Shown here: one piece after another, positions 1-13,497 of the stretch
How positions within the stretch are numbered: position 1 is the stretch's first letter
How the letters are laid out: each line of letters starts with the position of its first letter
Notes under the pieces: model-generated
What the model was told of the DNA's origin: nothing
What the model saw: only the letters and a program-made list of their open reading frames with translations
Databases searched by the model: none
DNA from: Candidatus Fervidifonticultor sextus
GTDB lineage: Bacteria > Sysuimicrobiota > Sysuimicrobiia > Sysuimicrobiales > Humicultoraceae
Direction of reading: 5' to 3'
Length of the DNA stretch: 13,497 nt
Assembly: GCA_031459875.1 (NCBI GenBank)
Contig: JAVKHQ010000054.1
Span: 1 to 13,497 of the forward strand
Made by a program: the position numbers and the translations under genes

Positions 1-415
<415 letters not shown>

Positions 416-716
416 AAACCCTTGTGTTGCGACCTCCACTGGCGACAGTGGATGCCAAACTCGGCTGTATGCTGGGAACCCCGCAAGGATCCCGCGCTAC
501 CTGTGCAGTCTTTGCCGGCGTGTCCAGCGGCGTGCAGGTGACAACGCGGCGGGTGAGGCGGACAATCAGCAGGGAAGTCGCCCGTCGGGCGTGTGCGTGA
601 TGGGTTGACCCCTCAGAGACTACACGCCGACATCCCCCGATGGGCCGGCCGCAAGGGCCGGGTCCGGGGGGATGAAGAGATAGTCCGCGCCTCCAGGCGA
701 CTGGGGGAAACACGCG
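416..716 (+). mobile_element. Group I intron in 16S rRNA, inserted after U1498; 301 nt, no internal ORF
   Basis: Removing it restores gaagtcgt|aacaaggtagcc. The 5' exon ends in U (415) and the intron ends in G (716). P1: gtcgtaa 411-417 with ttgcgac 427-433, U415-G429 wobble at the splice site. P10: tgtt 425-428 with 3' exon aaca. P2: 435-452 with GCGA loop. P atgctgggaac (469-479) pairs with Q aatcagcagg (564-573). R tcagagactaca (613-624) and S aagagatagtcc (675-686) form P7. P3: tcggc 461-465 with gccga 626-630. P8: catccccc/gggggatg. P9: 690-707 with GCGA loop. Confidence 0.96.
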
Positions 717-761
717 AACAAGGTAGCCGTACGGGAACGTGCGGCTGGATCACCTCCTTTC
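717..761 (+). rRNA. rrs: 16S rRNA exon 2 (helix 45 and anti-Shine-Dalgarno tail)
   Basis: aacaaggtagccgtacgggaacgtgcggctggatcacctccttt. Confidence 0.98.
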
Positions 762-842
762 TAGGGAGAACATAGGGCCTGTCGTGTGTGCGGTGCACAC
801 GCTCCAGGTACCCGGCGGACTCCTTGCCACCATGGGGTTGTC

Positions 843-884
843 AAAGCGAACGCCCGCTCCGACAGGAGCGGGCGTCGTGCTTTC
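843..884 (+). terminator. Probable terminator hairpin ending the 16S transcript
   Basis: Perfect 11-bp stem acgcccgctcc-gaca-ggagcgggcgt (850-875), flanked by aaagc/gcttt; the U-tract is weak. It is preceded by ttgtcaaag (838-846), complementary to a boxA-type ctttgacaa leader and so probably the 3' strand of the 16S processing stem. Confidence 0.6.
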
Positions 885-956
885 GTCGCGTCCTGCCCTT
901 CCCCACAATCATTCCCGAACTCCATAGTGGTCGCTGCCGATGAGACTATTGAAGGG

Positions 957-1589
957 ATGGACGGCCGCGTGACCGCACCGCCTGCGCCAGAGCACGATTC
1001 GACGCTCGACGCCATCGAGACCGAGATCTCCCGTGCCACGGCGAGCGAGATCCAGGCCTATCTGCGTGGTGCTTCCCGAGACGGTACCTTCAACCGACTG
1101 CACAGGACGCTTCGGATCGCCCAAGCCGACCTCCGGTGGCTCCGGGTCCTCGGGGATCTTCTTGGACGACTTGGGAAGCGCAGTTGGCCCTCCCGCGAGG
1201 GTGCTCGACGCGTCTGGGTGATCGAGACGACCTGGCGCCCTGAGCGTTTGGCAACGGTCCGCACGAAAGGCGAAGCCGCCATGTTCGTTCGTGGCTACTT
1301 CGATACCGAAGGCGGAGTGCCGGCAGACAGCCGTGCCCGGTTCGACGTTCAGTTCGTCCAGAAGAGTCACGCGGACCTGGCTTACACCCGCGGCCTGCTC
1401 GAGTTGCTCGGAGTACGGTGCGGGCGGATCCATAATCCCAGCGCGAGACGAGACGCCGACGTCGGACCTTCGTCCCGCTTCCTTCATCCAATCCGCCGCC
1501 GACATGGAGGGGATGGTTCGATCATCTCCGCTGAACTGGTGCATACTTCGAGGCGGCCTGTTCTATGGGCCAGGCACCGGCACGGATGA
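957..1589 (+). pseudogene. Two-motif LAGLIDADG homing endonuclease, free-standing; homology breaks near 1460 and the frame runs on to a stop at 1589
   Basis: Motif 1 AYLRGASRDGT (1056-1088) and motif 2 MFVRGYFDTEGG (1281-1316), followed by beta-strand VQFVQKS and helix LAYTRGLLELLGV typical of the LAGLIDADG fold. After ~1460 the DNA belongs to an epimerase fragment in another frame. Start codon uncertain (ATG 957 or GTG 969). Confidence 0.8.
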
Positions 1590-1938
1590 CGCTTGGCGCA
1601 AGGCAGCCCGGGAAGGTACATTGCGCCTGCCCGCGGACGGTTCAGGTTTCGTTTCCTTGATCCACGTGGTCGATATGGCTCGCGCCATTGTCCGGACCGC
1701 TGAGGCCACCCCCGTACAAACGGTCTTCAACGTTGTTGACGACGAGCCTGTGACCTACCGGGACTTGTTTGGATACATAGCCGCTCAGGAAGGCGCCAAT
1801 CCTCCCGAACCCGGAGGCGATAGTGTGCTGCCTTCCCTAGCCTGCTCGAACTCAAGGATTCGCTCGGAACTGGGATGGTCGCCCGTATTCAAGACCTATC
1901 GCTCTGGTCTCGCAGCGTCCCACACAGCATCGGCCTAA
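1462..1938 (+). pseudogene. NAD-dependent epimerase/dehydratase (extended SDR), C-terminal fragment; integron cassette remnant
   Basis: ILRGGLFYGPG, SLIHVVDMARAI, VFNVVDDEPV and SNSRIRSELGWSP are extended-SDR motifs. There is no N-terminal GxxGxxG or start codon. The stop TAA lies inside the R'' box of the following attC. Confidence 0.85.
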
Positions 1939-2032
1939 CAACTCGATGGAGCCGACCCGGCCAGCTGCGAGGAATCGGGTCCATGATAGGCTCTAAGCGC
2001 TGGCCGGGCGGCTCATCTCGAGACCGTTAGGT
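1933..2032 (+). mobile_element. Integron attC site (100 bp)
   Basis: R'' gcctaac (1933-1939, RYYYAAC) and R' gttaggt (2026-2032, GTTRRRY). Arms gagccg-a-cccggccagc (1949-1965) and gctggccgggcggctc (1999-2014) pair with an extrahelical base at 1955. Confidence 0.9.
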
Positions 2033-2062
2033 TGATCCCAGACCAGAAGCGGGGAGTAGGAG

Positions 2063-2260
2063 ATGGAGTAAGGAGCCCACCTCTCGTTGGTCTCCTTCCG
2101 CGGTGAGTCGCGGACACTCGCAGACCTCCTTCACTTCACGAAATCCGCCCGCCCCAACGTGCCAAGTATCGCCGATGCGTTGGGCGGGCCCGGGTTCACG
2201 GGAAGGATCGTGTATCTGGAGGCAGGTAGCAGGACCCATCTCCCAGGCCTTGCGTGCGGC
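2063..2260 (+). pseudogene. Possible remnant of the next cassette gene (unknown function)
   Basis: SD aggag and ATG at 2063 just after the attC, with an in-frame TAA at codon 3; the frame then continues as the 2087 ORF and runs into the toxin gene. No recognisable homology. Confidence 0.3.
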
Positions 2261-2265
2261 TCGTC

Positions 2266-2550
2266 TCAGCCACGTCGCCGCTCGAGTATCGAGTACACGT
2301 CGCGCCGGTGGCGGATCGCCCATACGGTGACCGCCTGTGCCTCGATCTCATAGCAAATACGGTAGTCACCTACCCGGATTTTCCAGAGGCCGGACAGCGA
2401 ACGCCGAAGGCGCTCGCCGTATCTAGCCGGTTCCGTCATCAGCCGGGCCTCGATCGCCCTGACGATTCGTGTGCGGAGGTTCTGCGGGATGCGCGGAAGG
2501 TCTTCCTCCACGACTTCCGGCCTGTACAGCAGCGTATAGGGAGGGTCCAC
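2266..2550 (-). CDS. Type II toxin, RelE/ParE family (RelE/StbE-like mRNA interferase)
   Basis: 94 aa, basic; G..LR..LSGLWKIRVGDYRICYEI and IRHRRDVY motifs; directly downstream of the antitoxin. Confidence 0.92.
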   Translation of the reverse strand: MDPPYTLLYRPEVVEEDLPRIPQNLRTRIVRAIEARLMTEPARYGERLRRSLSGLWKIRVGDYRICYEIEAQAVTVWAIRHRRDVYSILERRRG

Positions 2551-2553
2551 CGG

Positions 2554-2790
2554 CTATCGGATGCCCAGCCGCCGCTTGAGCTCCTCATGAGGGATCGAGG
2601 GTGCGGGATTCGTCCGGCGTCGGTCGACGAGTTCCTCCAGCGCCGCGTCTTCCCGCAATTCCAAAGCCTCGCGGACGAGCTCGCGAACCTTTTGAGAGAG
2701 CGAGACGCCGTCCCGCCTTGCCAGCTTCTTGACCGCCTCGAAGAGGGGCGGTTCCAGCACCGTGTTAATCCTGGGATGCACAGAAGGCAT
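2554..2790 (-). CDS. Antitoxin with ribbon-helix-helix DNA-binding domain
   Basis: 78 aa; [37 protein letters not shown] (RHH), acidic middle, [12 protein letters not shown] tail; SD ggaggtg; 3 bp upstream of the toxin. Confidence 0.88.
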
Positions 2791-2808
2791 CGAATCACCT
2801 CCACGCGG

Positions 2809-2837
2809 AGTGTAACATAGGTGTTCAACCCTGTCCA
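2809..2837 (-). promoter_or_regulatory. Sigma70-type promoter of the TA operon
   Basis: Minus strand TGGACA-17 bp-TACACT with an extended -10 TG. Overlapping gtgtaaca/gtgttcaa repeats could be the RHH operator. Confidence 0.6.
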
Positions 2838-2875
2838 GCGATGCTCGTGTCGCGGAGACGGGTGCATCTTATCTT

Positions 2876-3290
2876 CACCCCTGCCCGTGCGGCCACCGGG
2901 GCGATCTGTCCCGGGAGTGCCTGTGCAGCCCGGCTCAGGTGGCCCGCTACCTGGCGCGGGTGTCCGGGTCGCTGCTGGACCGCATCGACCTGCACGTGGA
3001 GGTTCCCCGGGTCGCCGCCGCGGAGCTGGTCGCCGCAGGACCCAGGGAGAGCTCGGCACAGGATGCGGGCGCGGGTGCTGGCGGCCCGTGAGATCCAGGC
3101 CGGCGGCTACGGGGGCGCGCGCACCAACGGCGCGTTGAACGCCCGTCAGGTCCGGATCCTGAAGGTGGCGCGGACCATCGCCGACCTGGAGGAGGCCGAG
3201 TCCATCGCGGTCACCCACCTGGCCGAGGCGATCCAGTACCGGGCCCTGGACCGGTCGCTGCGGCTGGTGGGCGGGGGCAGGCCGGGGTGA
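2876..3290 (+). pseudogene. comM: YifB/ComM Mg-chelatase-like AAA+ ATPase, 3' fragment
   Basis: [33 protein letters not shown] from 2879, a +1 frameshift near 3060, then [16 protein letters not shown] and [21 protein letters not shown]. The N-terminal majority is missing and the segment normally between ARQV and RILKVART is deleted. The stop overlaps the dprA start. Confidence 0.9.
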
Positions 3291-4168
3291 GGAGGCTGCC
3301 CGGGCCGGTGGATGCCGTCGGTCCCGACGACCCCGGATATCCGGCGGCGCTGCGGACCATTCCCGATCCGCCGGCGCGGCTGTACGTCCGCGGGCATCTC
3401 CCGGGAGACGGCGCGGCGGCGGTGGCGGTGGTGGGGGCGCGGCGGGCGACAGTGTACGGGGTGGCCGTGGCCCGCCACCTGGCCGCCGATCTGGCCCGCT
3501 GCGGCGTGGCGGTGGTCAGCGGTCTGGCCCGCGGCATCGACGCCGCCGCCCACGAGGGGGCTCTGGACGCCGGCGGGCGGACGGTGGCGGTGCTGGGGTG
3601 CGGGCCGGATGTCGTCTACCCGCCCGAGCATGCCTCTCTGATGGCCCGGGTCATCGACGCGGGGGCGGTCCTGTCTGAATATCCACCCGGTACGCCCCCG
3701 CTGCGCCACCACTTTCCCCGACGCAACCGCCTGATCAGCGGGCTGTCCCTGGGCGTGGTGATTGTGGGAGGCCGAGAAGACAGCGGGGCCCTAATCACCG
3801 CCGACTGCGCCCTGGAGCAGGGACGGGAGGTGTCCGCGGTGCCGGGGCCGGTCACGTCCGCGACGAGCGCTTTGCCCCACCGGCTGGTGCAGCAGGGGGC
3901 CAAGCTGGTCAGGGGTGTGGAGGACATCCTCGAAGAGCTGCGCCTGCGGGTGCGTCCGCCCCCGGCGCCGCCGGCCGTGGCCCTGGCGGGGGCCGAGGCG
4001 GCGGTCTACGCGGTCCTGACGCTGGAGCCGCAGAGTCTGGACGCCCTGGTCCTGCGCAGCCGGCTGCCCGTCGCCGAGGTCAGCCGGGCCCTGGTGGCGC
4101 TGGAGCTGGCGGGGCTGGCGCGGGCGCTCCCGGGCCAGCGCTACGTGCGGACCGCCCCGGGAGACTGA
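3287..4168 (+). CDS. dprA: DNA-processing protein DprA (Smf)
   Basis: [63 protein letters not shown] and LVQQGAKLV motifs plus a C-terminal winged helix; canonical position after comM; lacks the N-terminal SAM domain. Confidence 0.95.
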
Positions 4169-4222
4169 AGGCGCCCGTGACAGCGCGCCACGGCCGCACG
4201 ATGCACGGTTGGGGGGAACACG

Positions 4223-5476
4223 ATGCGCGCCCGGTGTGAGATCTGGATTGGGCCCGGCGAGGCGGGCAGGCTCGTCGTGCGCTTTTGCTACAGTCCCGAA
4301 GGCATCGCGAGGATCAAGACGATCCCCGGCCGCCACTGGCATCCGGAGGGAAAGTACTGGACAGTTCCTCGGACCGACAGCGCCCTCGCGCGTCTGCTGG
4401 CGGTGTTCGCCGACCGTCCCGTTGCGGTGGACCCTGCGCTTCGGCCTGGAAATCACCGCCATGATCAGGTCACGCCGGCCGCCGCGGCGGCTCCTCACCC
4501 CTTGCCCGGACCACCAGGGGTCCTGGGTCGGGTCCGCGAGGCTCTCCGCGCCCGCCACTACAGCCGGAGGACCGAGCAGGCCTATGCGGCCTGGGTTGCC
4601 CGATTCGTTGAGTTCCACGGTGGGCGCGACCCCGGCCAGTTGGGTGAGCGGGAGGTCAACGCGTTCCTGACCCACCCGGCCCTGAGCACACGTGTGGCCG
4701 CCTCGACGCAGAACCAGGCCCTGGCCGCCCTCCTCTTTCTGTACGACGGCGTGCTGCGTCGCCCGTTGGGCCGGGTCGAAGGAGTCGTGCGGGCGAGGCG
4801 CCCTCGGCGGATGCCGGTCGTGCTGACCCGCGAGGAGGTCAGAGCGGTTCTGGACGGTCTCGACGGGACCACGCGCCTGGCCTGCGCGCTGCTGTACGGC
4901 TCTGGGCTGCGCCTGCTGGAGTGCCTGCGTCTGAGAGTCAAGGACATCGACTTCCAGCGCAACGAGATCACCGTCCGTGACGGCAAAGGCGGCAAGGATC
5001 GGGTGACCATGCTGCCGGCGACCGTCAAGGCGTCGCTGCAGGCGCACCTGGAGAAGGTGCGTCGCCAGCACGAGGACGACCTGGCCCGAGGTCTCGGATG
5101 GGCCCCGCTGCCGGATGCGCTCGCCCGTAAGTACCCCAGCGCCGACCGCCAGTGGGCCTGGCAGTGGGTCTTCCCGGTGTCGTCGCATTACGTTGATGCC
5201 CACACCGGCGTGCGCCACAGGCACCATCTGCACGAATCGGTGATTCAGCGGGCGGTGAAGGAAGCCGTTCGCCGGGCGGGGCTGACGAAACCCGCCACGT
5301 GCCACACCTTCCGGCATTCGTTCGCCACACACCTCTTGGAAGACGGATACGATATCCGGACGATCCAGGAGCTGCTCGGACACAAGGACGTGAAGACCAC
5401 GATGATTTACACTCACGTGCTGAACCGCGGCGGAAAGGGCGTCCGGAGCCCGATGGACGGGCTGCACCCCGGTTGA
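4223..5476 (+). CDS. intI: Integron integrase (tyrosine recombinase) with ~100-aa N-terminal extension
   Basis: [42 protein letters not shown], the IntI-specific insertion [52 protein letters not shown] and [16 protein letters not shown]; catalytic R-K-H-R-H-Y intact. Confidence 0.97.
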
Positions 5477-5494
5477 GTCCTGCTGATCTTGAGG

Positions 5495-5660
5495 GTGCTA
5501 GACTGACCGATCAGACAGTATAATACCTGGCAAGGAGGCCGGGGCAGGATGAGGGGAATTCAGATAGGACGCGTGACCGCCGGGGGGCCCGGGCGTCTGA
5601 CCCCGTCGTGTTAGGCTGACAAGAGCGGGGTGTTAGACTGGTCTGTGTAAACACAAGGGG
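5495..5660 (+). mobile_element. Probable attI region downstream of intI
   Basis: Three direct repeats gtgctagactg (5495-5505), gtgttaggctg (5608-5618) and gtgttagactg (5630-5640), two containing GTTRRRY. These are followed by taaacacaag (5648-5657), resembling attI1 taaaacaaag|tt. A perfect TATAAT lies at 5519-5524 without a good -35. Confidence 0.55.
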
Positions 5661-5667
5661 GCGTTCA

Positions 5668-5769
5668 ACCTGACAAGGTGCTGCAGCCGTCGAGCCGCTC
5701 CCGTGGGAGTCGAAGCAAGGCAAGCGGCGAGCCGCGCGTGGCCCGCGGGTGAGCGCCAAGGCGTCGGGC
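5668..5769 (+). mobile_element. Degenerate attC site (102 bp)
   Basis: R'' acctgac (5668-5674) and R' gtcgggc (5763-5769). Arms ggtgct-g-cagccg-t-cgagccgc (5677-5698) and gtggcccgcgggtgagcgcc (5738-5757) pair with two extrahelical bases and a few mismatches. Confidence 0.7.
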
Positions 5770-5788
5770 GGCTCGGAACCACAATCAA

Positions 5789-6076
5789 ATGGTTGATACA
5801 CGTGTTCAACTAGAGGTCGAAGACTGGGTGCGCCAGAACTGGATGCCGAAGCAGTTTGGGCAGCAGTTCCGACGCGAGCGAATTCGACTTACTTCCGGCG
5901 GCTTCACCGTGCTCACGGATCCCGGCATGCACCAGCTCTGTCTCAAGGAGAAAGAGGGCGCCCGAGTACCACCTTCAATCGAGTTCCGGCTCGCGCCGGT
6001 CCCAACGGAGCTTCATGAGAGTCTGCGCCGCGCGCAGAGCGCCTCGCGAGAAGTGCGCCCGAGGCGTGACACATAA
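5789..6076 (+). CDS. Hypothetical cassette protein, possibly internally deleted
   Basis: 95-aa ORF starting 20 bp after the attC, protein-like composition, less GC-biased codons than the flanking genes. The abrupt change at SGGF|TVLTD suggests a missing middle. Confidence 0.6.
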   Translation: MVDTRVQLEVEDWVRQNWMPKQFGQQFRRERIRLTSGGFTVLTDPGMHQLCLKEKEGARVPPSIEFRLAPVPTELHESLRRAQSASREVRPRRDT

Positions 6077-6137
6077 TCGGCAGGGCCGCCTGACCAGCGC
6101 ATAAAGCCCTGCTCTACGGGGCTAAAGAGGGTTTCCG

Positions 6138-6993
6138 ATGAAAGACTGGCAGGTCAAAGTAGGTGGCGACCGTGAGCTCGCGTGCACAGATATTGGTGAG
6201 CGCGGTTGGCCCTGCGTTTTGTTCTTCCACGGTGCGCCCTCGAGCCGCCTGCGCCTCGCCTACCTGGAACAACAATTTTCTAGCCGAGGGCATCCGGGTT
6301 GTCTCACCCGATCGCCCTGGCTACGGGAGGTCGTCGCCGCAGCCGGGTCGGGCGATGACCGATTGGCCCTCGGACGTCGCTGTCCTCGCGGATGCGCTGG
6401 GACTCGGCCGCTTTGTCGTTGCCGGCCACTCGGGCGGTGGTCCATATGCGGTGATGTGTGCCGCGCTGCTCCCGGAGCGTGTGTCGGCAGGCATCATCCT
6501 GGGTGGCGTGACGGACATGGGGTGGCCCGACGCCTGGAAGGGGTACCTCGACAGCGAGGTTCTTCTCATGCGCATGCCTGACGAGGAAGCGGCTATCGCC
6601 TGGTGCGTGGAACGCTATGGCGCAGACGGGAGTGGGTTCCTGTCCGCATCTGGTATCGCGTTTACGGGACCCGACGCGCGACTGTATGCGGACGAAGAGG
6701 TCGCGCCCCTTCTGGCTTCGTCTCGTGCTGAGGCCTTTCGGCAGGGCGTGGCAGGATACGCTCAAGACCTCTTCATCCAGGGCCGCCCGTGGCCGTTCGA
6801 CCCAGGCACTATCACCTCACCGATCCATGTCGTCCACGGTGCGTTGGACACACTCCTCCCCCTGGCACACAGCCGCCACACCGCGGAAGTGGTTCCGGGA
6901 TCTATTCTGCGCGTGTTTCCCGCACATGGGCACTTTACCATCCTGAGTGAGCTCCCGACGATGGCGTCGGCTTTGGTGCGTTCGTTGTCCTAG
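6138..6993 (+). pseudogene. Alpha/beta hydrolase split by a single frameshift
   Basis: MKDW..VLFFHGAPSSR in the 6138 frame continues as GIRVVSPDRPGYGRS, GHSGGG (nucleophile elbow), HGALD and HGH in the 6163 frame. Removing one T from tttt 6276-6279 joins them. Confidence 0.88.
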
Positions 6994-7081
6994 GTCAGGA
7001 TGCTGACGCTCGCATCCCCGCTGATCACGGGCTGATGCGGGCGTACACGGTCGGAGCCTATCGGTGGGCTGGAGGGATATG

Positions 7082-7843
7082 ATGTACCGGACGGACATGT
7101 ACGAGGGAATGCTCGCGGAGACCGTCACGGTTCACGGCGCGGGCGGCGACCTCATCACCGCCTACGTCGCCCGGCCGCTGGGTCCCGGGCCCTTTCCCGG
7201 CATCGTCGTGATCCACCACATGCCCGGCTGGGATGAGTGGTACCGCGAGGCCACGCGGAGGTTCGCCCATCACGGCTACGCGGCGCTGTCGCCCAATCTC
7301 TACCATCGCGACGGCCACGGGACCCCGGAGGACGTGGCGGCAAAGGTGCGGGCCGCAGGCGGGGTTCCCGACGACCAGGTGGTGGGCGACGTGGAGGGGG
7401 CGATGCGCTATCTGCGCTCGTTGCCCTACCTCAACGGCAGGGTCGGCGTGTTCGGTACCTGCTCGGGGGGCCGGCACGCCTTTCTGGCGGCGTGTCGGGT
7501 GAGCGGGTTTGACGCGGCGGTGGACTGCTGGGGTGGGCGCGTGGTGATGTCGCCGGAGGAACTCACGTCGAAGCAGCCCGTGGCTCCCATCGAGTACACC
7601 AAGGACCTTTCGTGTCCGCTCCTGGGCCTCTTCGGCGAAGAGGATCGGAGCCCCTCGCCAGAGCAGGTCGGCCTGCACGAACAGGAACTCCAGAAACACG
7701 GCAAGACCTACGAGTTCCACATGTATCCGAACGCGGGGCATGGCTTCTTCTACTACGACCGGCCGGCCTACAGGCCGCAGCAGGCGGTGGACGGGTGGCA
7801 GAAGGTGTTTGCCTTCCTCGAGAAGTATCTCAAGACGCCGTGA
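7082..7843 (+). CDS. Dienelactone hydrolase family protein
   Basis: PGIVVIHH, GVFGTCSGG (nucleophile Cys), LGLFGEED and YPNAGHGF; SD ggaggg at 7071-7076. Confidence 0.93.
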   Translation: MYRTDMYEGMLAETVTVHGAGGDLITAYVARPLGPGPFPGIVVIHHMPGWDEWYREATRRFAHHGYAALSPNLYHRDGHGTPEDVAAKVRAAGGVPDDQVVGDVEGAMRYLRSLPYLNGRVGVFGTCSGGRHAFLAACRVSGFDAAVDCWGGRVVMSPEELTSKQPVAPIEYTKDLSCPLLGLFGEEDRSPSPEQVGLHEQELQKHGKTYEFHMYPNAGHGFFYYDRPAYRPQQAVDGWQKVFAFLEKYLKTP

Positions 7844-7880
7844 GTGTGCGCGAGATGTTCGTCCGAAAGGAGCACGACAC

Positions 7881-8171
7881 GTGTGCACCATGATCGTGAG
7901 GCAGGTGGCGGTTGAAGGCTGCGGCAGGGGAGCCGCCGGATGGTTCATGGTGCGGCAGGCCAACGTGTCCTATGACCATCCCTTCCACGCGCCGCTGGAA
8001 CACGCGCTGAACATCGACTTCGTGGACGAAGGGGGGGACCCCGGGGCGCGGGTGGCCGTCGAACTCACCGCAGCGTCGGCACGCGCGTTGGTCGAGGCAA
8101 TCCTTGCCGTGCTCGGCCGTGCAGAGGCGGGTGGGTACCTGGACCCGGAGACAACGTCCCGTGGCGTCTGA
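7881..8171 (+). CDS. Small conserved protein, DUF6295-like
   Basis: GTG start after SD aaaggag; MCTMI..G.GRG..GWF..V.YDHP.HAPLEHALNIDF..RVAVEL pattern. Family name recalled, not searched. Confidence 0.75.
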   Translation: MCTMIVRQVAVEGCGRGAAGWFMVRQANVSYDHPFHAPLEHALNIDFVDEGGDPGARVAVELTAASARALVEAILAVLGRAEAGGYLDPETTSRGV

Positions 8172-8208
8172 AGAGCTGCCGTCGACTCCTATCGTGTGAG
8201 GGTGAGAC

Positions 8209-9183
8209 GTGAAGCTCGAGGGCATCCACCACATTACAGCCGTGACCGCCAACGCACCCGGGAACGTCGAGTTCTACACGCGCGTGCTGGGCCTGCGCCT
8301 GGTTAAGAAGAGCGTCAACCAGGACGACCCGACCGTCTACCACCTTTTCTACAGCGACGAACGGGGAAGCCCGGGCGCGGACCTGACCTTCTTCGAGTAC
8401 CCCGGCGCGGAGCGCGGCCGTCCCGGGGCCGGGATGGTCCACCGCATCGTGTGGCGGGTCGCGTCGGAGGAGGCGCTCGACTTCTGGCAGGCCCGTCTGC
8501 GGGGCGAGGGGATCGCCTCGCGGCGCGAGGACGGTCGGCTGGTCTTTGACGACCCGGAGGGGCTGGGATTGGAGTTGGCGCTCGACGAGGGCCGCGACGC
8601 GCCCCTGGTGGCCGACCACCCCGAGATCCCCTCCCGCCTGGCCCTCCGGGGGTTTGCCGGCGTCCGGGCCTACGCCGCGGATCCGGAGGGCAGCCGTCAT
8701 TTCCTGGAGCAGGCGCTGGGGTTCGTGCGCACAGCCGAGGACCGCTACGAGGTGCGCGGCGACCACCGCGGATCTTTCTATATCTACGATCGCACAGCCG
8801 AGCCGGGCCGCAGCGGCGCCGGCACGGTCCATCACGTGGCCTGGACTTCCACCATGGAGGCGCACGCTGCGTGGCGGCGCCGCGTGCTCGAGGAGGGCGG
8901 GTCGCCCACGCCGGTCATCGACCGCTACTACTTCCGTTCGATCTACTTCCACGAGCCGAGCGGCGTCCTGTTCGAGATCGCCACGGACGGCCCCGGCTTC
9001 ACGACCGACGAGCCCCTCGAGCACCTCGGCGAGCGGCTGGCGCTGCCCCCGAAGTTCGAGCCGCTGCGCGAGCGCCTCGAGCAGATCCTGACGCCGTTGC
9101 GGAACCCGCGCGAGGGCGCGCCTGTGACGACCGGCCCTCCTCCTTCGACGCCGCCTGCAGGGCCGAACAGGTTGCGGCGCTGA
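8209..9183 (+). CDS. Ring-cleaving dioxygenase / glyoxalase (VOC family, MhqO-like)
   Basis: GIHHITA, FYTRVLGLRLVKKSVNQDDP..YHLFY, GTVHHVAW and DRYYFRSIYFHEPSGVLFEIATDGPGF. Confidence 0.93.
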   Translation: MKLEGIHHITAVTANAPGNVEFYTRVLGLRLVKKSVNQDDPTVYHLFYSDERGSPGADLTFFEYPGAERGRPGAGMVHRIVWRVASEEALDFWQARLRGEGIASRREDGRLVFDDPEGLGLELALDEGRDAPLVADHPEIPSRLALRGFAGVRAYAADPEGSRHFLEQALGFVRTAEDRYEVRGDHRGSFYIYDRTAEPGRSGAGTVHHVAWTSTMEAHAAWRRRVLEEGGSPTPVIDRYYFRSIYFHEPSGVLFEIATDGPGFTTDEPLEHLGERLALPPKFEPLRERLEQILTPLRNPREGAPVTTGPPPSTPPAGPNRLRR

Positions 9184-9300
9184 GGGCGGGAGGGCGTCCG
9201 GGAGGCCGCCTGTGGGACGCGCCGCGGTCGCCCAGGGGAGCTGCGAGAGGACGGCGAATGCGAGGCCTCGTCGAACCCCCCCACCGAGGAGGACTCCTGG

Positions 9301-9873
9301 ATGACGCAGGATCAAGGGCCGTCGGCTCGCAGAGAGGTGGCCACGCTGGCGGGTGGCTGCTTCTGGTGTCTGGAGGCGGTGTTCAACGACCTGCGGGGGG
9401 TGGAGCGGGTGGTCTCGGGGTACGCCGGCGGCACCGTGCCCAACCCCACCTACGAGCAGGTCTGCACGGGGACGACCGGCCATGCCGAGGTCGTCCAGGT
9501 GACCTTCGACCCGGAGGTCATCTCGTTTCGGGAGTTGCTGGAAGTTTTCTTCACCATCCACGACCCCACCACGCTCAACCGGCAGGGACCCGATGTCGGC
9601 ACCCAGTACCGATCGGCCATCTTCTACCACACGGCGGAGCAAAAGGCGACCGCCGAGCAGGTGATCCGGGACCTAGCGGCTTCCGGCCTGTGGCGCGACC
9701 CGATCATCACCGAGGTCGCCCCGTTGGAGGCCTTCTACCCGGCCGAGGCGTACCACCAGCGGTACTTCGAGCGCAACCCCCATCAACCGTACTGCCGGAC
9801 GGTGATCGCCCCCAAGGTCGCCAAGTTCCGCCGGCAGCACCTGGCCAGGCTCAAGCAGGCAGCCGGATCCTAG
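9301..9873 (+). CDS. msrA: Peptide-methionine (S)-S-oxide reductase
   Basis: GGCFWCLE, SGYAGG, TGHAEVVQ, HDPTTLNRQGPDVGTQYRSAIF and AEAYHQRY; SD gaggagg. Confidence 0.98.
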   Translation: MTQDQGPSARREVATLAGGCFWCLEAVFNDLRGVERVVSGYAGGTVPNPTYEQVCTGTTGHAEVVQVTFDPEVISFRELLEVFFTIHDPTTLNRQGPDVGTQYRSAIFYHTAEQKATAEQVIRDLAASGLWRDPIITEVAPLEAFYPAEAYHQRYFERNPHQPYCRTVIAPKVAKFRRQHLARLKQAAGS

Positions 9874-9886
9874 GGGCCAGCCTGTC

Positions 9887-10396
9887 ATGCCTGCCCAGGC
9901 CTTCCAGGACGCCTACCCCGACGCGCTGAGCCACTGCTACGGTTGCGGCCGGCTGAACGAACACGGCCTGCACCTCAAGAGCTACTGGGACGGCGACGAG
10001 ACGGTCGCCGTCTTCTCCCCGAAGCCCTACCACACGGCGATCCCGGGCTACGTCTATGGAGGGCTGATCGCCTCGCTGATCGACTGCCACGGCACCGGGA
10101 CCGCCGCCGCCGCCGCCTACCGGGCCGCCGGACGGGCGTTGGGGAGCGATCCGCCGCTGCGTTTCGTCACGGCTTCGCTGCGCGTGGACTACCTCCGTCC
10201 GACGCCGATGGGCGTGCCGCTGGAGATCCGGGGGCGGGTCAAGGAGATCACGGGGCGCAAGGTCGTCGTTGAGGCCACGGTCTCGGCCGGCGGGCAGGTG
10301 TGCGCGCGGGGCGAGGTCGTGGCCGTCCAGTTGCCCGAGCACCTGGTGCCCAAAGAGGGTGGAGGCTATAGCCGTTGCGACGCTGGGTCGGACTGA
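9887..10396 (+). CDS. PaaI/hotdog-fold thioesterase
   Basis: CYGCGRLNEHGL, GYVYGGLIASLIDCH and VTASLRVDYLRPTP. Confidence 0.9.
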   Translation: MPAQAFQDAYPDALSHCYGCGRLNEHGLHLKSYWDGDETVAVFSPKPYHTAIPGYVYGGLIASLIDCHGTGTAAAAAYRAAGRALGSDPPLRFVTASLRVDYLRPTPMGVPLEIRGRVKEITGRKVVVEATVSAGGQVCARGEVVAVQLPEHLVPKEGGGYSRCDAGSD

Positions 10397-10439
10397 GAGG
10401 AGTCCGGCCTCGGGCGCGACGGATCTCGGGGCGGATCCC

Positions 10440-10991
10440 GTGCGGCTCGACATCCCCAACCCCTCCCTGGTGGTGCTCTGTGGTCCGGCCGGCAGCGGGA
10501 AGACCACCTTCGCGGCCCGGCACTTCCCCCCGACCGCGATCGTGTCCTCGGACCGCTGCCGTGCCATGATCGCCGACGACGAGCGCAACATCGCGGTCTC
10601 CCGCGAGGCGTTCGAGCTCTTCCACCTGATCATCGACCGCCGATTGCGCTTCGGGCGGCTCGCGGTCGCCGACAGCACGGCCCTGCGGCGCGATGCGCGC
10701 CGCGCATTGCTCCAGATCGGCCGCCGCCACGGCGTCCCGGTCATCGTCATCGTGTTCGATGTCTCGCTGGAGCGCTGCTTCCATCACGACACGCTCCGCG
10801 ACCGCCGCGTAGGGCGTGCCGTCATCGAACGGCACGTCCGGCTGCTGCAGGACACGCTGCGGACCGTCGCGGATGAGGGGTTCGATCGGGTCGTGATCCT
10901 GGACGAGGTGCTCGCACGTCAGACCTCGGTGGTCCTCGGAGGGAGTCCCCCTCGGCGTTCCGGAGACCAGGGGCCGCCGCCGGCGCCCTGA
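10440..10991 (+). CDS. P-loop kinase (AAA_33), similar to the kinase module of bacterial Pnkp; start uncertain
   Basis: LVVLCGPAGSGKTTFA, IVSSDRCR, AFELFHLIIDRRLRFGRLAVADST. Confidence 0.85.
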   Translation: MRLDIPNPSLVVLCGPAGSGKTTFAARHFPPTAIVSSDRCRAMIADDERNIAVSREAFELFHLIIDRRLRFGRLAVADSTALRRDARRALLQIGRRHGVPVIVIVFDVSLERCFHHDTLRDRRVGRAVIERHVRLLQDTLRTVADEGFDRVVILDEVLARQTSVVLGGSPPRRSGDQGPPPAP

Positions 10992-11123
10992 GACTGGCCA
11001 GGGGAACCCCTGTCGTCTGTCGAACGGGCGGGAAGGGATTGTCCGCATGGGGCGCGCCGTGGCACCGGACCTGGCGATCGAGCCCGGACGCATCGCAGCC
11101 GTCCTGGGGATGGGGTCGGCGGC

Positions 11124-11687
11124 GTGACGGGGGCCGAACCGATCTCCCGGCAGGTCGGCGGCTGCCGCCTGACGCTCGTCCAGGGGGACATCACCACCCA
11201 GGAGGTGGACGCTATCGTCAACGCCGCCAACAGCCGGCTGGTCGGGGGCGGCGGGGTCGACGGCGCCATCCGCCGGGCCGGCGGACCGGCCATCGAGGAG
11301 GAGTGCGCGGCCATCCGGGCCCGCCAGGGCGGGTGTCCGACGGGGTCGGCGGTCATCACGGGCGCCGGGAGGCTCCCGGCCCGATACGTCATCCACGCCG
11401 TCGGGCCGGTCTGGCAGGGAGGCAGCCACGGCGAGGCGGACCTGCTGGCCTCGGCCTACCTGGCCAGCCTGGCGCTGGCCGCCCGGCACGGGGCCCGGAC
11501 CGTCGCCTTTCCGTCCATCAGCACCGGCGCCTACGGCTACCCGGTCGAACAGGCCGCCCGGGTAGCCCTCCGGACCGTCGCAGAGGTCTTGAAGGAGCAG
11601 GCCTTCGACGAGGTCCGCTTCGTCCTCTTTTCGCCGAAGGATTACCACGCCTACGCCGAGGCGCTGCGCGACCTGCCGCCAACCTGA
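11124..11687 (+). CDS. Macrodomain protein (O-acetyl-ADP-ribose deacetylase, YmdB-like)
   Basis: GDITTQEVDAIVNAANSRLVGGGGVDGAI, VIHAVGPVW and AFPSISTGAYGYP. Confidence 0.95.
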   Translation: MTGAEPISRQVGGCRLTLVQGDITTQEVDAIVNAANSRLVGGGGVDGAIRRAGGPAIEEECAAIRARQGGCPTGSAVITGAGRLPARYVIHAVGPVWQGGSHGEADLLASAYLASLALAARHGARTVAFPSISTGAYGYPVEQAARVALRTVAEVLKEQAFDEVRFVLFSPKDYHAYAEALRDLPPT

Positions 11688-11768
11688 GGCCCCTGCAGGA
11701 GGTCGTGGGGACGGCGGGTAAGTGGAAGGCCAGACGAGGAGCAGGCATCCCTGCCGGAGGTGAGGACC

Positions 11769-11996
11769 GTGGTCTCAGCCGTGGTGCTGCTGAAAGCCGC
11801 TCCGGGCCAGGCCCGCAAGGCCGCGATCGCCATCAGGAAGATCAAGGGCGTGCGCCAGGTCCACGTGGTCACCGGACCGTACGACATCATCTGCATGACG
11901 GAGGCCGGGACCATGGCCGCGCTGGGGGACACCGTCATTACGAAGATCCAGCGGACCCCCGGGGTGACCGACACGCTCACCTGCCTCGTCGTCTGA
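11769..11996 (+). CDS. Stand-alone Lrp/AsnC ligand-binding domain protein
   Basis: IKGVRQVHVVTGPYDII and IQRTPGVTDTLT; SD ggaggtgagg; no HTH domain. Confidence 0.85.
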   Translation: MVSAVVLLKAAPGQARKAAIAIRKIKGVRQVHVVTGPYDIICMTEAGTMAALGDTVITKIQRTPGVTDTLTCLVV

Positions 11997-12016
11997 AGTG
12001 GTCATGGACCCGGGTG

Positions 12017-12044
12017 TTGACAACCCCGATGCCCCTACTATAAT
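12017..12044 (+). promoter_or_regulatory. Consensus sigma70 promoter upstream of the 23S unit
   Basis: TTGACA (12017-12022), 16-bp spacer, TATAAT (12039-12044); a 16-bp spacer is typical of rrn promoters. Confidence 0.9.
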
Positions 12045-12129
12045 GGGTTGTGGCCTGAACACGGGGAGGGATTGGTGCTGAGGTCGCCAACCGGGTAAAC
12101 CGAATACGGTGTACCCGATGAGCATCCCG

Positions 12130-12158
12130 GAGGGGAGACGGCTCATCCCCTCTTTTTT
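12130..12158 (+). terminator. Intrinsic terminator between the promoter and the 23S leader
   Basis: Stem gagggga (12130-12136) with tcccctc (12146-12152), followed by tttttt (12153-12158). Confidence 0.75.
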
Positions 12159-12199
12159 GTGTCCCGTCCCCGCAAAGCCGTACGAGCATGCCTCAATGT

Positions 12200-12266
12200 T
12201 CCTGCCGGCGGGCCCGGCAGGATCCGACGCGCGGAGTCCGCGGCGGGGCGCACCTTGACAAGTGAA
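12200..12266 (+). promoter_or_regulatory. 23S leader: boxB-like hairpin and boxA/processing-stem sequence
   Basis: Hairpin tcctgccgg-cgggc-ccggcagga (12200-12222) and gcaccttgacaagtgaa (12250-12266), resembling rrn boxA/processing stems. Confidence 0.55.
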
Positions 12267-12356
12267 GATGGACGAAGACATCCCGCCCGCGGGTGGAAAC
12301 GGCACCGGCGGGAGGAGGATGTGTTGCCAGGCTCTATACAGCTGCTCCTAGGGCGG

Positions 12357-13497
<1,141 letters not shown>

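Follow-up and report, generated by a model that had tools for sequence, protein, structure and literature searches.

The DNA analysed here, called the window throughout, is an entire 13,497-base contig (C50) from a draft genome of the bacterial phylum Sysuimicrobiota (formerly CSP1-3), and its 16S rRNA gene is interrupted by a 301-nt insert directly after U1498. This insert is a group I intron of the S1498 rRNA-intron family, located in what appears to be the only 16S gene of the genome; we are highly confident in this reading, in which the insert is a functional-looking ribozyme that belongs to a homing element. Both the intron family and the insertion site have been published, and the host phylum is new for both. 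The more interesting detail is not the intron itself but the LAGLIDADG homing endonuclease gene of the element, which lies outside the intron, downstream of the 16S gene, and which in this genome has lost its 3' end.

A group I intron between U1498 and A1499

The initial annotation, made from the sequence of the window, had placed a 301-nt group I intron in the span 411-722. This span consists of the exon end GUCGU (411-415), the insert (416-716) and the exon start AACAAG (717-722), and the same boundaries follow from direct reading of the exons; the site was placed by alignment with the Escherichia coli gene, and the identity of the insert was examined with the Rfam group I model RF00028. The 5' exon ends in GAAGUCGU at 415; the 3' exon resumes with AACAAGGUAGCC at 717 and reaches its anti-Shine-Dalgarno end at about 760, the intron thus being situated 44 bases upstream of the 16S end. 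In the blastn comparison with E. coli, where rrs occupies 2017985-2019526 and the match runs from 2019483, window position 717 corresponds to rrs position 1499, so the insertion does follow U1498, as had been annotated.

At default thresholds, an Rfam scan recognised no intron. It reported a bacterial 16S rRNA, of which the final third lies at the start of the window (RF00177, 393 bits, model positions 1076-1533, the match being cut off at 440), and a 23S rRNA whose first third begins at 12358. The covariance-model search that the initial annotation had suggested as a check required a permissive scan of positions 350-1000, in which RF00028 matched 406-707 over its full length (model positions 1-253) with 48.0 bits and an E value of 4e-11, and a short 16S fragment match resumed at 723. 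The curated gathering score of RF00028 is 50 bits. The same model was matched by all 20 homologous same-site loci tested, 17 of them scoring 54-95 bits and three 45.7-49.8 bits; since 17 homologues pass the cut-off, the near-miss of the window is best ascribed to the long P5 and P8 arms of this copy and not to a different identity. The intron also folds better than each of 100 dinucleotide shuffles (z -3.85).

A blastn search of the intron against 60 related genomes yielded matches in 12. Exactly the same junction is present in ten of these (GAAGUCGU, then 228-274 nt, then AACAAGGUA), and the remaining two are interrupted by the end of a contig or matched only in part. The 5' junction is, moreover, crossed with zero differences by a DNA contig from a public sequencing run (305-454). 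Because the junction recurs in ten relatives and is bridged by this contig, the insert is not an assembly artefact.

An assembly chimera had been named at the outset as what would overturn the assignment. More broadly, the contig might be a chimera of assembly or binning, with the intron-bearing 16S end of a different organism attached to Sysuimicrobiota genes, or misassembly might have created the insert. Ribosomal RNA genes are frequent sites of misassembly and misbinning, the contig begins within the 16S gene, and its similarity to relatives ends abruptly at 1460. However, over positions 1-1460 the window shares 77-86% identity with the corresponding stretch (16S, intron and endonuclease) in three genomes of its family, the ten relatives that share the junction were assembled separately, DNA contigs cross both 415/416 and 1460 without differences, and the unlinked, co-oriented arrangement of 16S and 23S genes seen in the window recurs in the related genomes G007 and G016. 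We regard a chimera as scarcely credible.

Structure and covariation of the intron

The group I hallmarks listed in the initial annotation, namely the U·G wobble, P10, the terminal G and the GNRA loops on P2 and P9, are all present (Table 1). The P3' strand begins three bases after P7 (J7/3 of 3 nt) and P7.1 and P7.2 are absent, again as annotated, which argues against subgroup IA and for nothing further as to subgroup.

The secondary structure was drawn from the window sequence and then scored on an alignment of 364 columns. Of 27 distinct short introns at this site, the alignment comprises 17, the ten above about 310 nt in length having been left out; 500 shuffles and 3' partners slid by 1-3 columns served as controls. 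Standard pairs were found in 93.9% of 1168 cells, compared with 37-45% in the slid controls, and compensatory changes on both sides occur in 28 of 70 pairs among the 17 sequences. The U415·G429 wobble is present in 17 of 17 sequences. The neighbouring pair between exon and guide in P1 changes from G-C to A-U in L038, a locus of the Candidate Phyla Radiation (CPR), where the matching 16S base has changed too. Guide bases 426-428 can pair either with intron positions 416-419, extending P1, or with the 3' exon bases AAC (717-719), forming P10; a possible extension involving 420-423 and 720-723 would bring P10 in the window to seven pairs with a two-base bulge. By analogy with the general group I model, G618-C685 would be the guanosine-binding pair.

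Table 1. Coordinates of features in the window, with the basis of each assignment; paired strands are joined by "with", and "17" denotes the aligned short introns.
Feature	Position	Strand	Basis or remark
16S rRNA, 5' exon portion (about E. coli 1076-1498); ends GUCGU, U415 = U1498	1-415	+	RF00177; E. coli alignment
Group I intron, 301 nt, ORF-less, site S1498	416-716	+	RF00028; same-junction homologues; covariation
16S rRNA, 3' exon (E. coli 1499-1542); helix 45 and anti-Shine-Dalgarno end	717-760	+	E. coli alignment
LAGLIDADG homing-endonuclease gene, 3'-truncated	957-1460	+	PF14528, 37.6 bits; open frame 786-1589
Breakpoint	1460-1461		blastn similarity to L015, L009 and L005 all ends at 1460
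P1, closed by U415·G429 wobble	411-415 with 429-433	+	100% paired in 17; extension 416-419 with 426-428
Internal guide sequence GUUGCGAC	426-433	+	complementary to ligated exons GUCGU/AAC
P2 hairpin, GCGA (GNRA) loop 442-445	435-452	+	7/7 pairs compensatory
P3, 5' strand	461-465 with P3' 626-630	+	U-A to C-G in 6/17; C-G to U-G in 5/17
P4-P5 domain	470-571	+	P4 470-475 with 566-571 (invariant); P5 481-484 with 558-561 (one compensatory pair)
J4/5; J5/4 (ACAA)	476-480; 562-565	+	within P4-P5 domain
P5a/P5b extended arm	491-553	+	P5a 3/7 pairs compensatory; arm length differs among relatives
P6/P6a hairpin	572-612	+	inner 5 pairs all compensatory; outer 6 invariant
P7, 5' strand GAGACUA, bulged A617	616-622 with 681-686	+	invariant in 17/17
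P8 hairpin, GCAA loop 651-654, no ORF	631-674	+	3/5 pairs compensatory; place of the endonuclease gene in long relatives
P9.0	687-689 with 713-715	+	100% paired; 2/3 pairs compensatory
P9 hairpin, GCGA loop 697-700	690-707	+	5/7 pairs compensatory
Terminal guanosine G716	716	+	invariant
DprA	3287-4168	same as rRNA	between 16S and 23S
Tyrosine recombinase	4223-5476	same as rRNA	between 16S and 23S
MsrA	9301-9873	same as rRNA	between 16S and 23S
Macro domain protein	11124-11687	same as rRNA	between 16S and 23S

Predicted splicing and maturation of the 16S rRNA

This anatomy suggests canonical two-step splicing initiated by guanosine. The guide GUUGCGAC would pair with the exon end GUCGU, placing U1498 in the wobble with G, and a free guanosine bound in P7 would attack after U415. 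P9.0 would then bring the terminal G716 to the same site, with the AAC of the 3' exon paired beside P1 in P10, and U415 would be joined to A717, restoring GUCGU-AACAAGG before maturation of the 30S subunit and methylation of U1498 by RsmE. An RsmE-family methyltransferase is encoded in the host genome (PF04452, 139 bits). Neither a second 16S 3' end nor an intron-free junction was found in the 3.05-Mb assembly, the only 3' end being that of the window. On these two grounds, it is reasonable to suppose that splicing is needed for this 16S copy and precedes the formation of 3-methyluridine at position 1498. As the site adjoins both the decoding centre and the methylated base, ribosome maturation would depend on a ribozyme step.

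Contigs of one metatranscriptome run (X4) and of three hot springs metagenome DNA runs were compared with window positions 1-2000. In X4, two contigs extend 8 letters across the junction in its intron-free form (at places 417 and 717); these overhangs fit any bacterium, and because the DNA runs show them too, we ascribe them to any bacterium with an intron-free 16S gene. Contigs of low depth lie on the intron in X4 (431-613; depth 2-3.3). Low-depth X4 sequence also covers part of the endonuclease region (949-1160) with 10 differences, indicating a related strain. Neither coverage proves transcription. Exon depth, which mixes many organisms, was left out of the analysis.

These data bear on the alternative that the insert is transcribed and not spliced by a ribozyme, being either retained or excised with the exons left unjoined, as happens with the intervening sequences by which some bacterial rRNAs are fragmented. 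An unspliced group I intron in the 23S rRNA of Chlamydiales, cited by Tsurumaki et al. (PMC11270868), provides a parallel, and the low-depth RNA-library contigs on the intron, together with the lack of an organism-specific spliced junction among the RNA contigs, would fit such a fate. The contigs on the intron could, however, be precursor, excised intron or DNA carry-over. Furthermore, the insert separates the nucleotides of the decoding site from helix 45 and is only 44 nt away from the 3' end, and the U·G pair, the guide, P7, J8/7, P9.0 and the terminal G are invariant or covary across phyla, which would be unexpected for a spacer that is merely excised. We therefore consider this alternative highly improbable.

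Some LAGLIDADG proteins double as maturases. A second alternative is that the ribozyme needs its LAGLIDADG protein in this role, in which case the 16S copy in the window would be dying and an unassembled copy would serve the cell. The truncated endonuclease gene and the draft assembly with its broken 16S gene are compatible with this. Yet no endonuclease sequence lies within 1.4-1.7 kb of 14 same-site introns that could be assessed, several being carried on long-read chromosomes with a linked 23S gene, so the intron persists without the protein; the exons and the ribozyme core show no decay relative to relatives, and no second 16S 3' end is present in the assembly. A maturase-dependent, dying copy is thus very unlikely, if marginally less so than an unspliced insert.

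Several points speak against a functional intron in a single 16S gene. The RF00028 score of the window itself falls 2 bits short of the curated cut-off. None of the 500 shuffles matched the structure in any of five measures, but the aligned sequences are related and not independent, so this control overstates the significance. P4, P7 and P10 are invariant and hence beyond the reach of covariation, P4 and P7 being backed by conservation only. The genome is a draft in which the 16S gene is split, and it may hold a second, collapsed copy. Finally, no organism-specific spliced junction was found in the X4 contigs within the compared region.

A homing endonuclease gene outside the intron

In calling the intron ORF-less, the initial annotation was right as to the intron itself, within which there is no open reading frame (ORF); it passed over an endonuclease homologue that starts 197 nt past the 16S end. 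The encoded protein matches PF14528 (LAGLIDADG_3) with 37.6 bits against a Pfam cut-off of 22.5, and alignment reveals both LAGLIDADG motifs with their acidic residues (YLRGASRDG and FVRGYFDTEGG). It is 32-47% identical to ORFs inside long same-site introns, 43-79% identical to ORFs downstream of the 16S gene in short-intron genomes and, over residues 1-169, 89% identical to the intact gene of G003 (locus L015; 211 residues). All five proteins scanned match LAGLIDADG_3; a PDB sequence search with the endonuclease gave no match at E values up to 1.

In the long introns, the ORF fills P8, and its N-terminal peptide TPQRLHAELL is encoded by the core from J6/7 through P7 to P3'. The stop codon is the UAG of P7' in many copies (e.g. 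L036, L041 and L056), others ending slightly earlier. The frame of the in-intron gene thus overlaps the ribozyme core, placing RNA and protein constraints on the same bases.

Among 45 distinct same-site loci, the endonuclease is found inside the intron in 18 (as a gene or remnant) and downstream of the 16S gene in 11, while 16 have none, two of the latter not being assessable. The 11 downstream cases comprise seven complete or nearly complete genes, the truncated gene of the window, two remnants with stops and one case of upstream similarity only. An outside gene combined with an ORF-less intron also occurs in L005, L006, L009, L015, L019, L035 and L083.

In a maximum-likelihood tree of 37 rows, built without L019 and without any row that contained stops or gave a short match, the downstream genes of Sysuimicrobiota and of two Actinomycetota form one clade of 7 rows (support 96/98). 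This clade is nested within a 19-row clade (97/89) that includes in-intron genes of Actinomycetota, Dormibacteraeota and Acidiferrales. The other main branch holds the DPANN gene and most of those from CPR, and two Peregrinibacteria genes stand unresolved beside the 19-row clade. Pairwise ratios of nonsynonymous to synonymous substitution rates (dN/dS) between the intact downstream genes are 0.13-0.26, a range that indicates purifying selection on them. Because one endonuclease family occurs in both positions, how mobile introns are put together and broken up can be tested directly.

By homology to the genes inside same-site introns, the target of the endonuclease would be the intron-less 16S site. 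In relatives, the intact outside gene presumably still cuts intron-less 16S alleles, and intron and outside gene would travel together, in what is known as trans or collaborative homing. This arrangement has been reviewed (PMC3984707) and is reported for mobE/I-TevIII of phage T4 (PMC2790892), where, as here, an ORF-less intron adjoins an endonuclease gene outside it. The present setting differs from the phage cases outlined in these sources in being a cellular rRNA gene and not a phage protein gene; in addition, the outside gene has homologues located within introns of this very family, and one relative retains intron and exon remnants behind it. The homologues inside introns and these remnants point to an exit from the intron rather than to the recruitment of a pre-adapted stranger.

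Alternatively, the downstream LAGLIDADG gene may not be the mobility partner of the intron at all, being instead an independent selfish gene with a target of its own, in the spacer or at some other place, or a domesticated one. Purifying selection also fits domestication, and in G021 (contig C7, 5960-6732), an endonuclease pseudogene with two in-frame TGA codons lies about 200 nt behind an intron-free junction. This locus itself looks like a precise loss of the intron that left the outside gene behind. The outside gene nevertheless shares a protein family with those in P8 of same-site introns (35-50% identity), and in L006, it is still trailed by decayed intron 3' sequence and a 16S tail. Endonuclease sequence also accompanies the intron, being found in 8 of 12 intron-bearing and 1 of 27 intron-free genomes of the phylum, a pattern rather than a test, as kin are not independent. 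An unconnected gene is accordingly unlikely, while deserving more weight than the alternatives discussed above for the intron.

A scan of positions 700-1700 for promoters and terminators gave nothing convincing for the endonuclease gene. A GC-rich hairpin between the 16S end and this gene (853-880; 10-bp stem, GACA loop) resembles a terminator on the minus strand only, and the Rfam Thr-leader match at the same hairpin is at chance level.

Origin of the outside gene

The locus L006 (G016, contig C204) offers the clearest view of how the outside arrangement could have arisen. Read in 16S orientation, positions 1860-1949 show the outside gene followed by a decayed J8/7-P7'-P9 segment and then by a second, near-perfect 16S tail, whose local score of 94 compares with a shuffle maximum of 28. 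The base ahead of this second tail is T and not G, and the arrangement does not look spliceable. The N-terminal coding region of the L006 gene bears a weak likeness to CCUCAGAGA of the ribozyme core (in the gene, CCGCAGAGA; p 0.001-0.066 by codon shuffling), a modest hint in the same direction. In L010 (G015), a vestigial second core and J8/7-P7' have been kept; the other ten of the 12 downstream regions yielded no second core, intron 3' end or 16S tail. A related configuration is seen in L097, from a Solirubrobacterales metagenome-assembled genome (MAG), where 1321-2010 in 16S orientation contain a complete, intron-free 16S end and, about 330 nt further on, a 5'-truncated remnant of an S1498 intron (P4' to P9) followed by a second 16S tail starting AGCAAGG.

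These loci suggest that the outside layout most likely derives from a 5'-truncated intron copy with its own exon 2. Such a copy, bearing the endonuclease and a second 16S tail, would have ended up downstream of a 16S gene carrying a short intron, and what was left of the duplicated copy would then have decayed, leaving the endonuclease gene outside. On this reading, which is the simplest, the whole cassette would at the level of DNA be one insertion at 1498/1499 that carries its own 16S end.

Taken further, the S1498 element may have been turned inside out in Sysuimicrobiota and some Actinomycetota: one LAGLIDADG clade would have left P8 as the remnant of a duplicated, 5'-truncated copy, would have been kept by selection and would mobilise the ORF-less ribozyme in trans across phyla. 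We put this forward tentatively, as a serious possibility that falls somewhat short of being probable. What weighs against any such exit, in this form or the one above, is that the endonuclease tree is midpoint-rooted, so that a move out of the intron is not proven, that a clear second tail is present in only one of eight outside-gene loci, and that the N-terminal vestige of the core is weak, the other outside genes mostly giving p >0.03. If it is true, the inside-out element would add to collaborative homing an example from cells, carried by an rRNA gene; with one protein family in both layouts at a single site, it would also provide a natural series for the assembly and disassembly of mobile introns.

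Truncation of the endonuclease in this genome

The endonuclease of the window lacks the conserved last ~45 residues (YWRFYV...WHPRKR), in place of which there is unrelated sequence. Since DNA contigs of two runs bridge position 1460 with zero differences, the breakpoint represents a real deletion. Conserved positions have also been substituted (WIYREG to WPSREG, and RFYVQ to RFDVQ), and dN/dS relative to the nearest relative is 0.48 over 144 codons. Judged by these sequence features, the endonuclease is probably dead in this genome. The ribozyme and the exons are intact, and a dead endonuclease beside an intact ribozyme matches the usual late stage of the homing cycle; the element here is probably immobile and vertically inherited.

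The region behind the breakpoint (1461-3290) is one of gene debris. It includes the C-terminal fragment of an epimerase in another frame (Pfam profile positions 113-239 only, about 1396-1734) and, directly upstream of the DprA gene, a C-terminal fragment of a Mg-chelatase/ComM protein (2841-3290).

Distribution of the intron

Among 94 species genomes of Sysuimicrobiota, 12 contain the intron core, 27 have an intron-free junction and none has both. By the patterns used, the other 55 have no assembled 16S end, so the share of intron carriers is 12 of 39 genomes with an assembled end. Both states occur within four genera (g3, g4, g8 and g9), and such a patchy distribution is as expected of a mobile element. 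In one genome (G058, contig C27), weak intron-like matches (L016, L018) are located about 10 kb behind an intron-free 16S gene.

A wider survey relied on blastn and on exact matches to 23 nt of the core, from the end of P6 to P3', a procedure by which diverged members are missed. The core was found in at least 119 contigs of species-representative genomes, 80 of which were fetched; patterns covering both junctions placed 37 of these 80 loci at the same 16S site, and the other 43, which involve contig ends, diverged CPR exons or other sites, were left unclassified. The 37 hosts belong to Solirubrobacterales, Acidimicrobiales, other Actinomycetota, Dormibacteraeota, Acidiferrales, several CPR lineages and two DPANN archaea, and some of the actinomycetotal loci (Solirubrobacterales, Acidimicrobiales) are on records labelled "chromosome" or on contigs of more than 1 Mb. 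Intron lengths fall into two classes, 244-413 and 545-834 nt. The introns of L038 (CPR) and L081 (DPANN) align with that of the window over their full length. At L019, a second RF00028 match (50.2 bits) lies on the minus strand at 2824-3019, giving an actinomycete 16S gene with two group I introns.

Relation to known 16S introns

The initial annotation had described 16S introns as rare in bacteria and known mainly from CPR and large sulfur bacteria. The view that the host belongs to neither group stands: the DprA encoded in the window shares 96% identity with its counterpart in a Candidatus Calidihabitans tengchongensis MAG, the next-best match being 56%; this genus is classified in Candidatus Sysuimicrobiota, and the phylum Sysuimicrobiota is neither CPR nor a lineage of giant sulfur bacteria. 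What had been missed is that 1498 is already a published group I site, in DPANN (PMC6125680) as well as in CPR (PMC11270868).

Nawrocki, Jones & Eddy (2018; PMC6125680) reported three IB4 introns at SSU/1498 in DPANN (IB4.8, IB4.19 and IB4.26), a site described there as previously unseen. These introns share the insertion site with that of the window and exist in short (~290 nt) and long (~740 nt) forms; L081 and L085, two DPANN loci of our survey, have the exact 23-nt P7-P3' core and the junction. The IB4 label is that of the published study, and our comparison with it runs through other DPANN genomes. The host differs as well, here being a bacterium from a phylum with genomes of ordinary size.

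For CPR, Tsurumaki et al. (2024; PMC11270868) described insertions at 1498 of 16S genes, with LAGLIDADG genes. Site, intron group and single-chain LAGLIDADG architecture agree with the present case, many CPR loci share the core, and their proteins join the same tree. The CPR proteins are called LAGLIDADG_2 in that paper, whereas the five scanned here match LAGLIDADG_3; the intron of the window further differs in its Sysuimicrobiota host and in the position of its endonuclease outside the intron. According to the same source, self-splicing 16S introns outside CPR had been reported only from giant sulfur bacteria, the work of Salman et al. (2012) as cited there and in PMC3984707. As far as these citing accounts describe them, those introns are likewise group I introns in non-CPR bacterial 16S genes that were missed by polymerase chain reaction (PCR) surveys, in a different host group.

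A literature search revealed no report of 16S group I introns in Actinomycetota, Dormibacterota or Sysuimicrobiota, and the word "intron" does not appear in the main text of the paper describing Sysuimicrobiota. Whereas bacterial self-splicing 16S introns have been described as confined to CPR and giant sulfur bacteria, the S1498 family thus also occurs in free-living phyla with ordinary genomes (Sysuimicrobiota, Actinomycetota, Dormibacteraeota and Acidiferrales).

This extension has practical consequences. The insertion interrupts the stretch to which the universal reverse primer 1492R binds, so intron-bearing lineages will be missed by PCR surveys of full-length 16S genes, and annotation pipelines end the gene early.

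Genome and rRNA gene arrangement

The draft genome comprises 67 contigs with a total of 3.05 Mb and is 96% complete. The public sequencing runs richest in window DNA are labelled hot springs metagenome. The sole 16S gene of the assembly is split: positions 9-641 are on contig C18, whose sequence breaks off at about 688, the window begins at about 1076, and positions ~689-1075 were not found in the assembly.

In the window, the 16S and 23S genes are co-oriented yet 11.6 kb apart (760-12358), with about a dozen protein genes on the same strand between them. Besides those in Table 1, these encode two hydrolases, a DUF6295 protein, a glyoxalase-type dioxygenase, a thioesterase and an AAA_33 kinase. 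Co-oriented 16S and 23S genes are separated by about 7 kb in G007 and about 8 kb in G016, and in G018 the two genes are on separate contigs, so that unlinked rRNA genes seem to be a trait of the family. The 23S match in G018 (contig C19, 504-4214) is 3711 nt long against a model of 2925 positions, and this gene probably carries about 800 nt of insertions.

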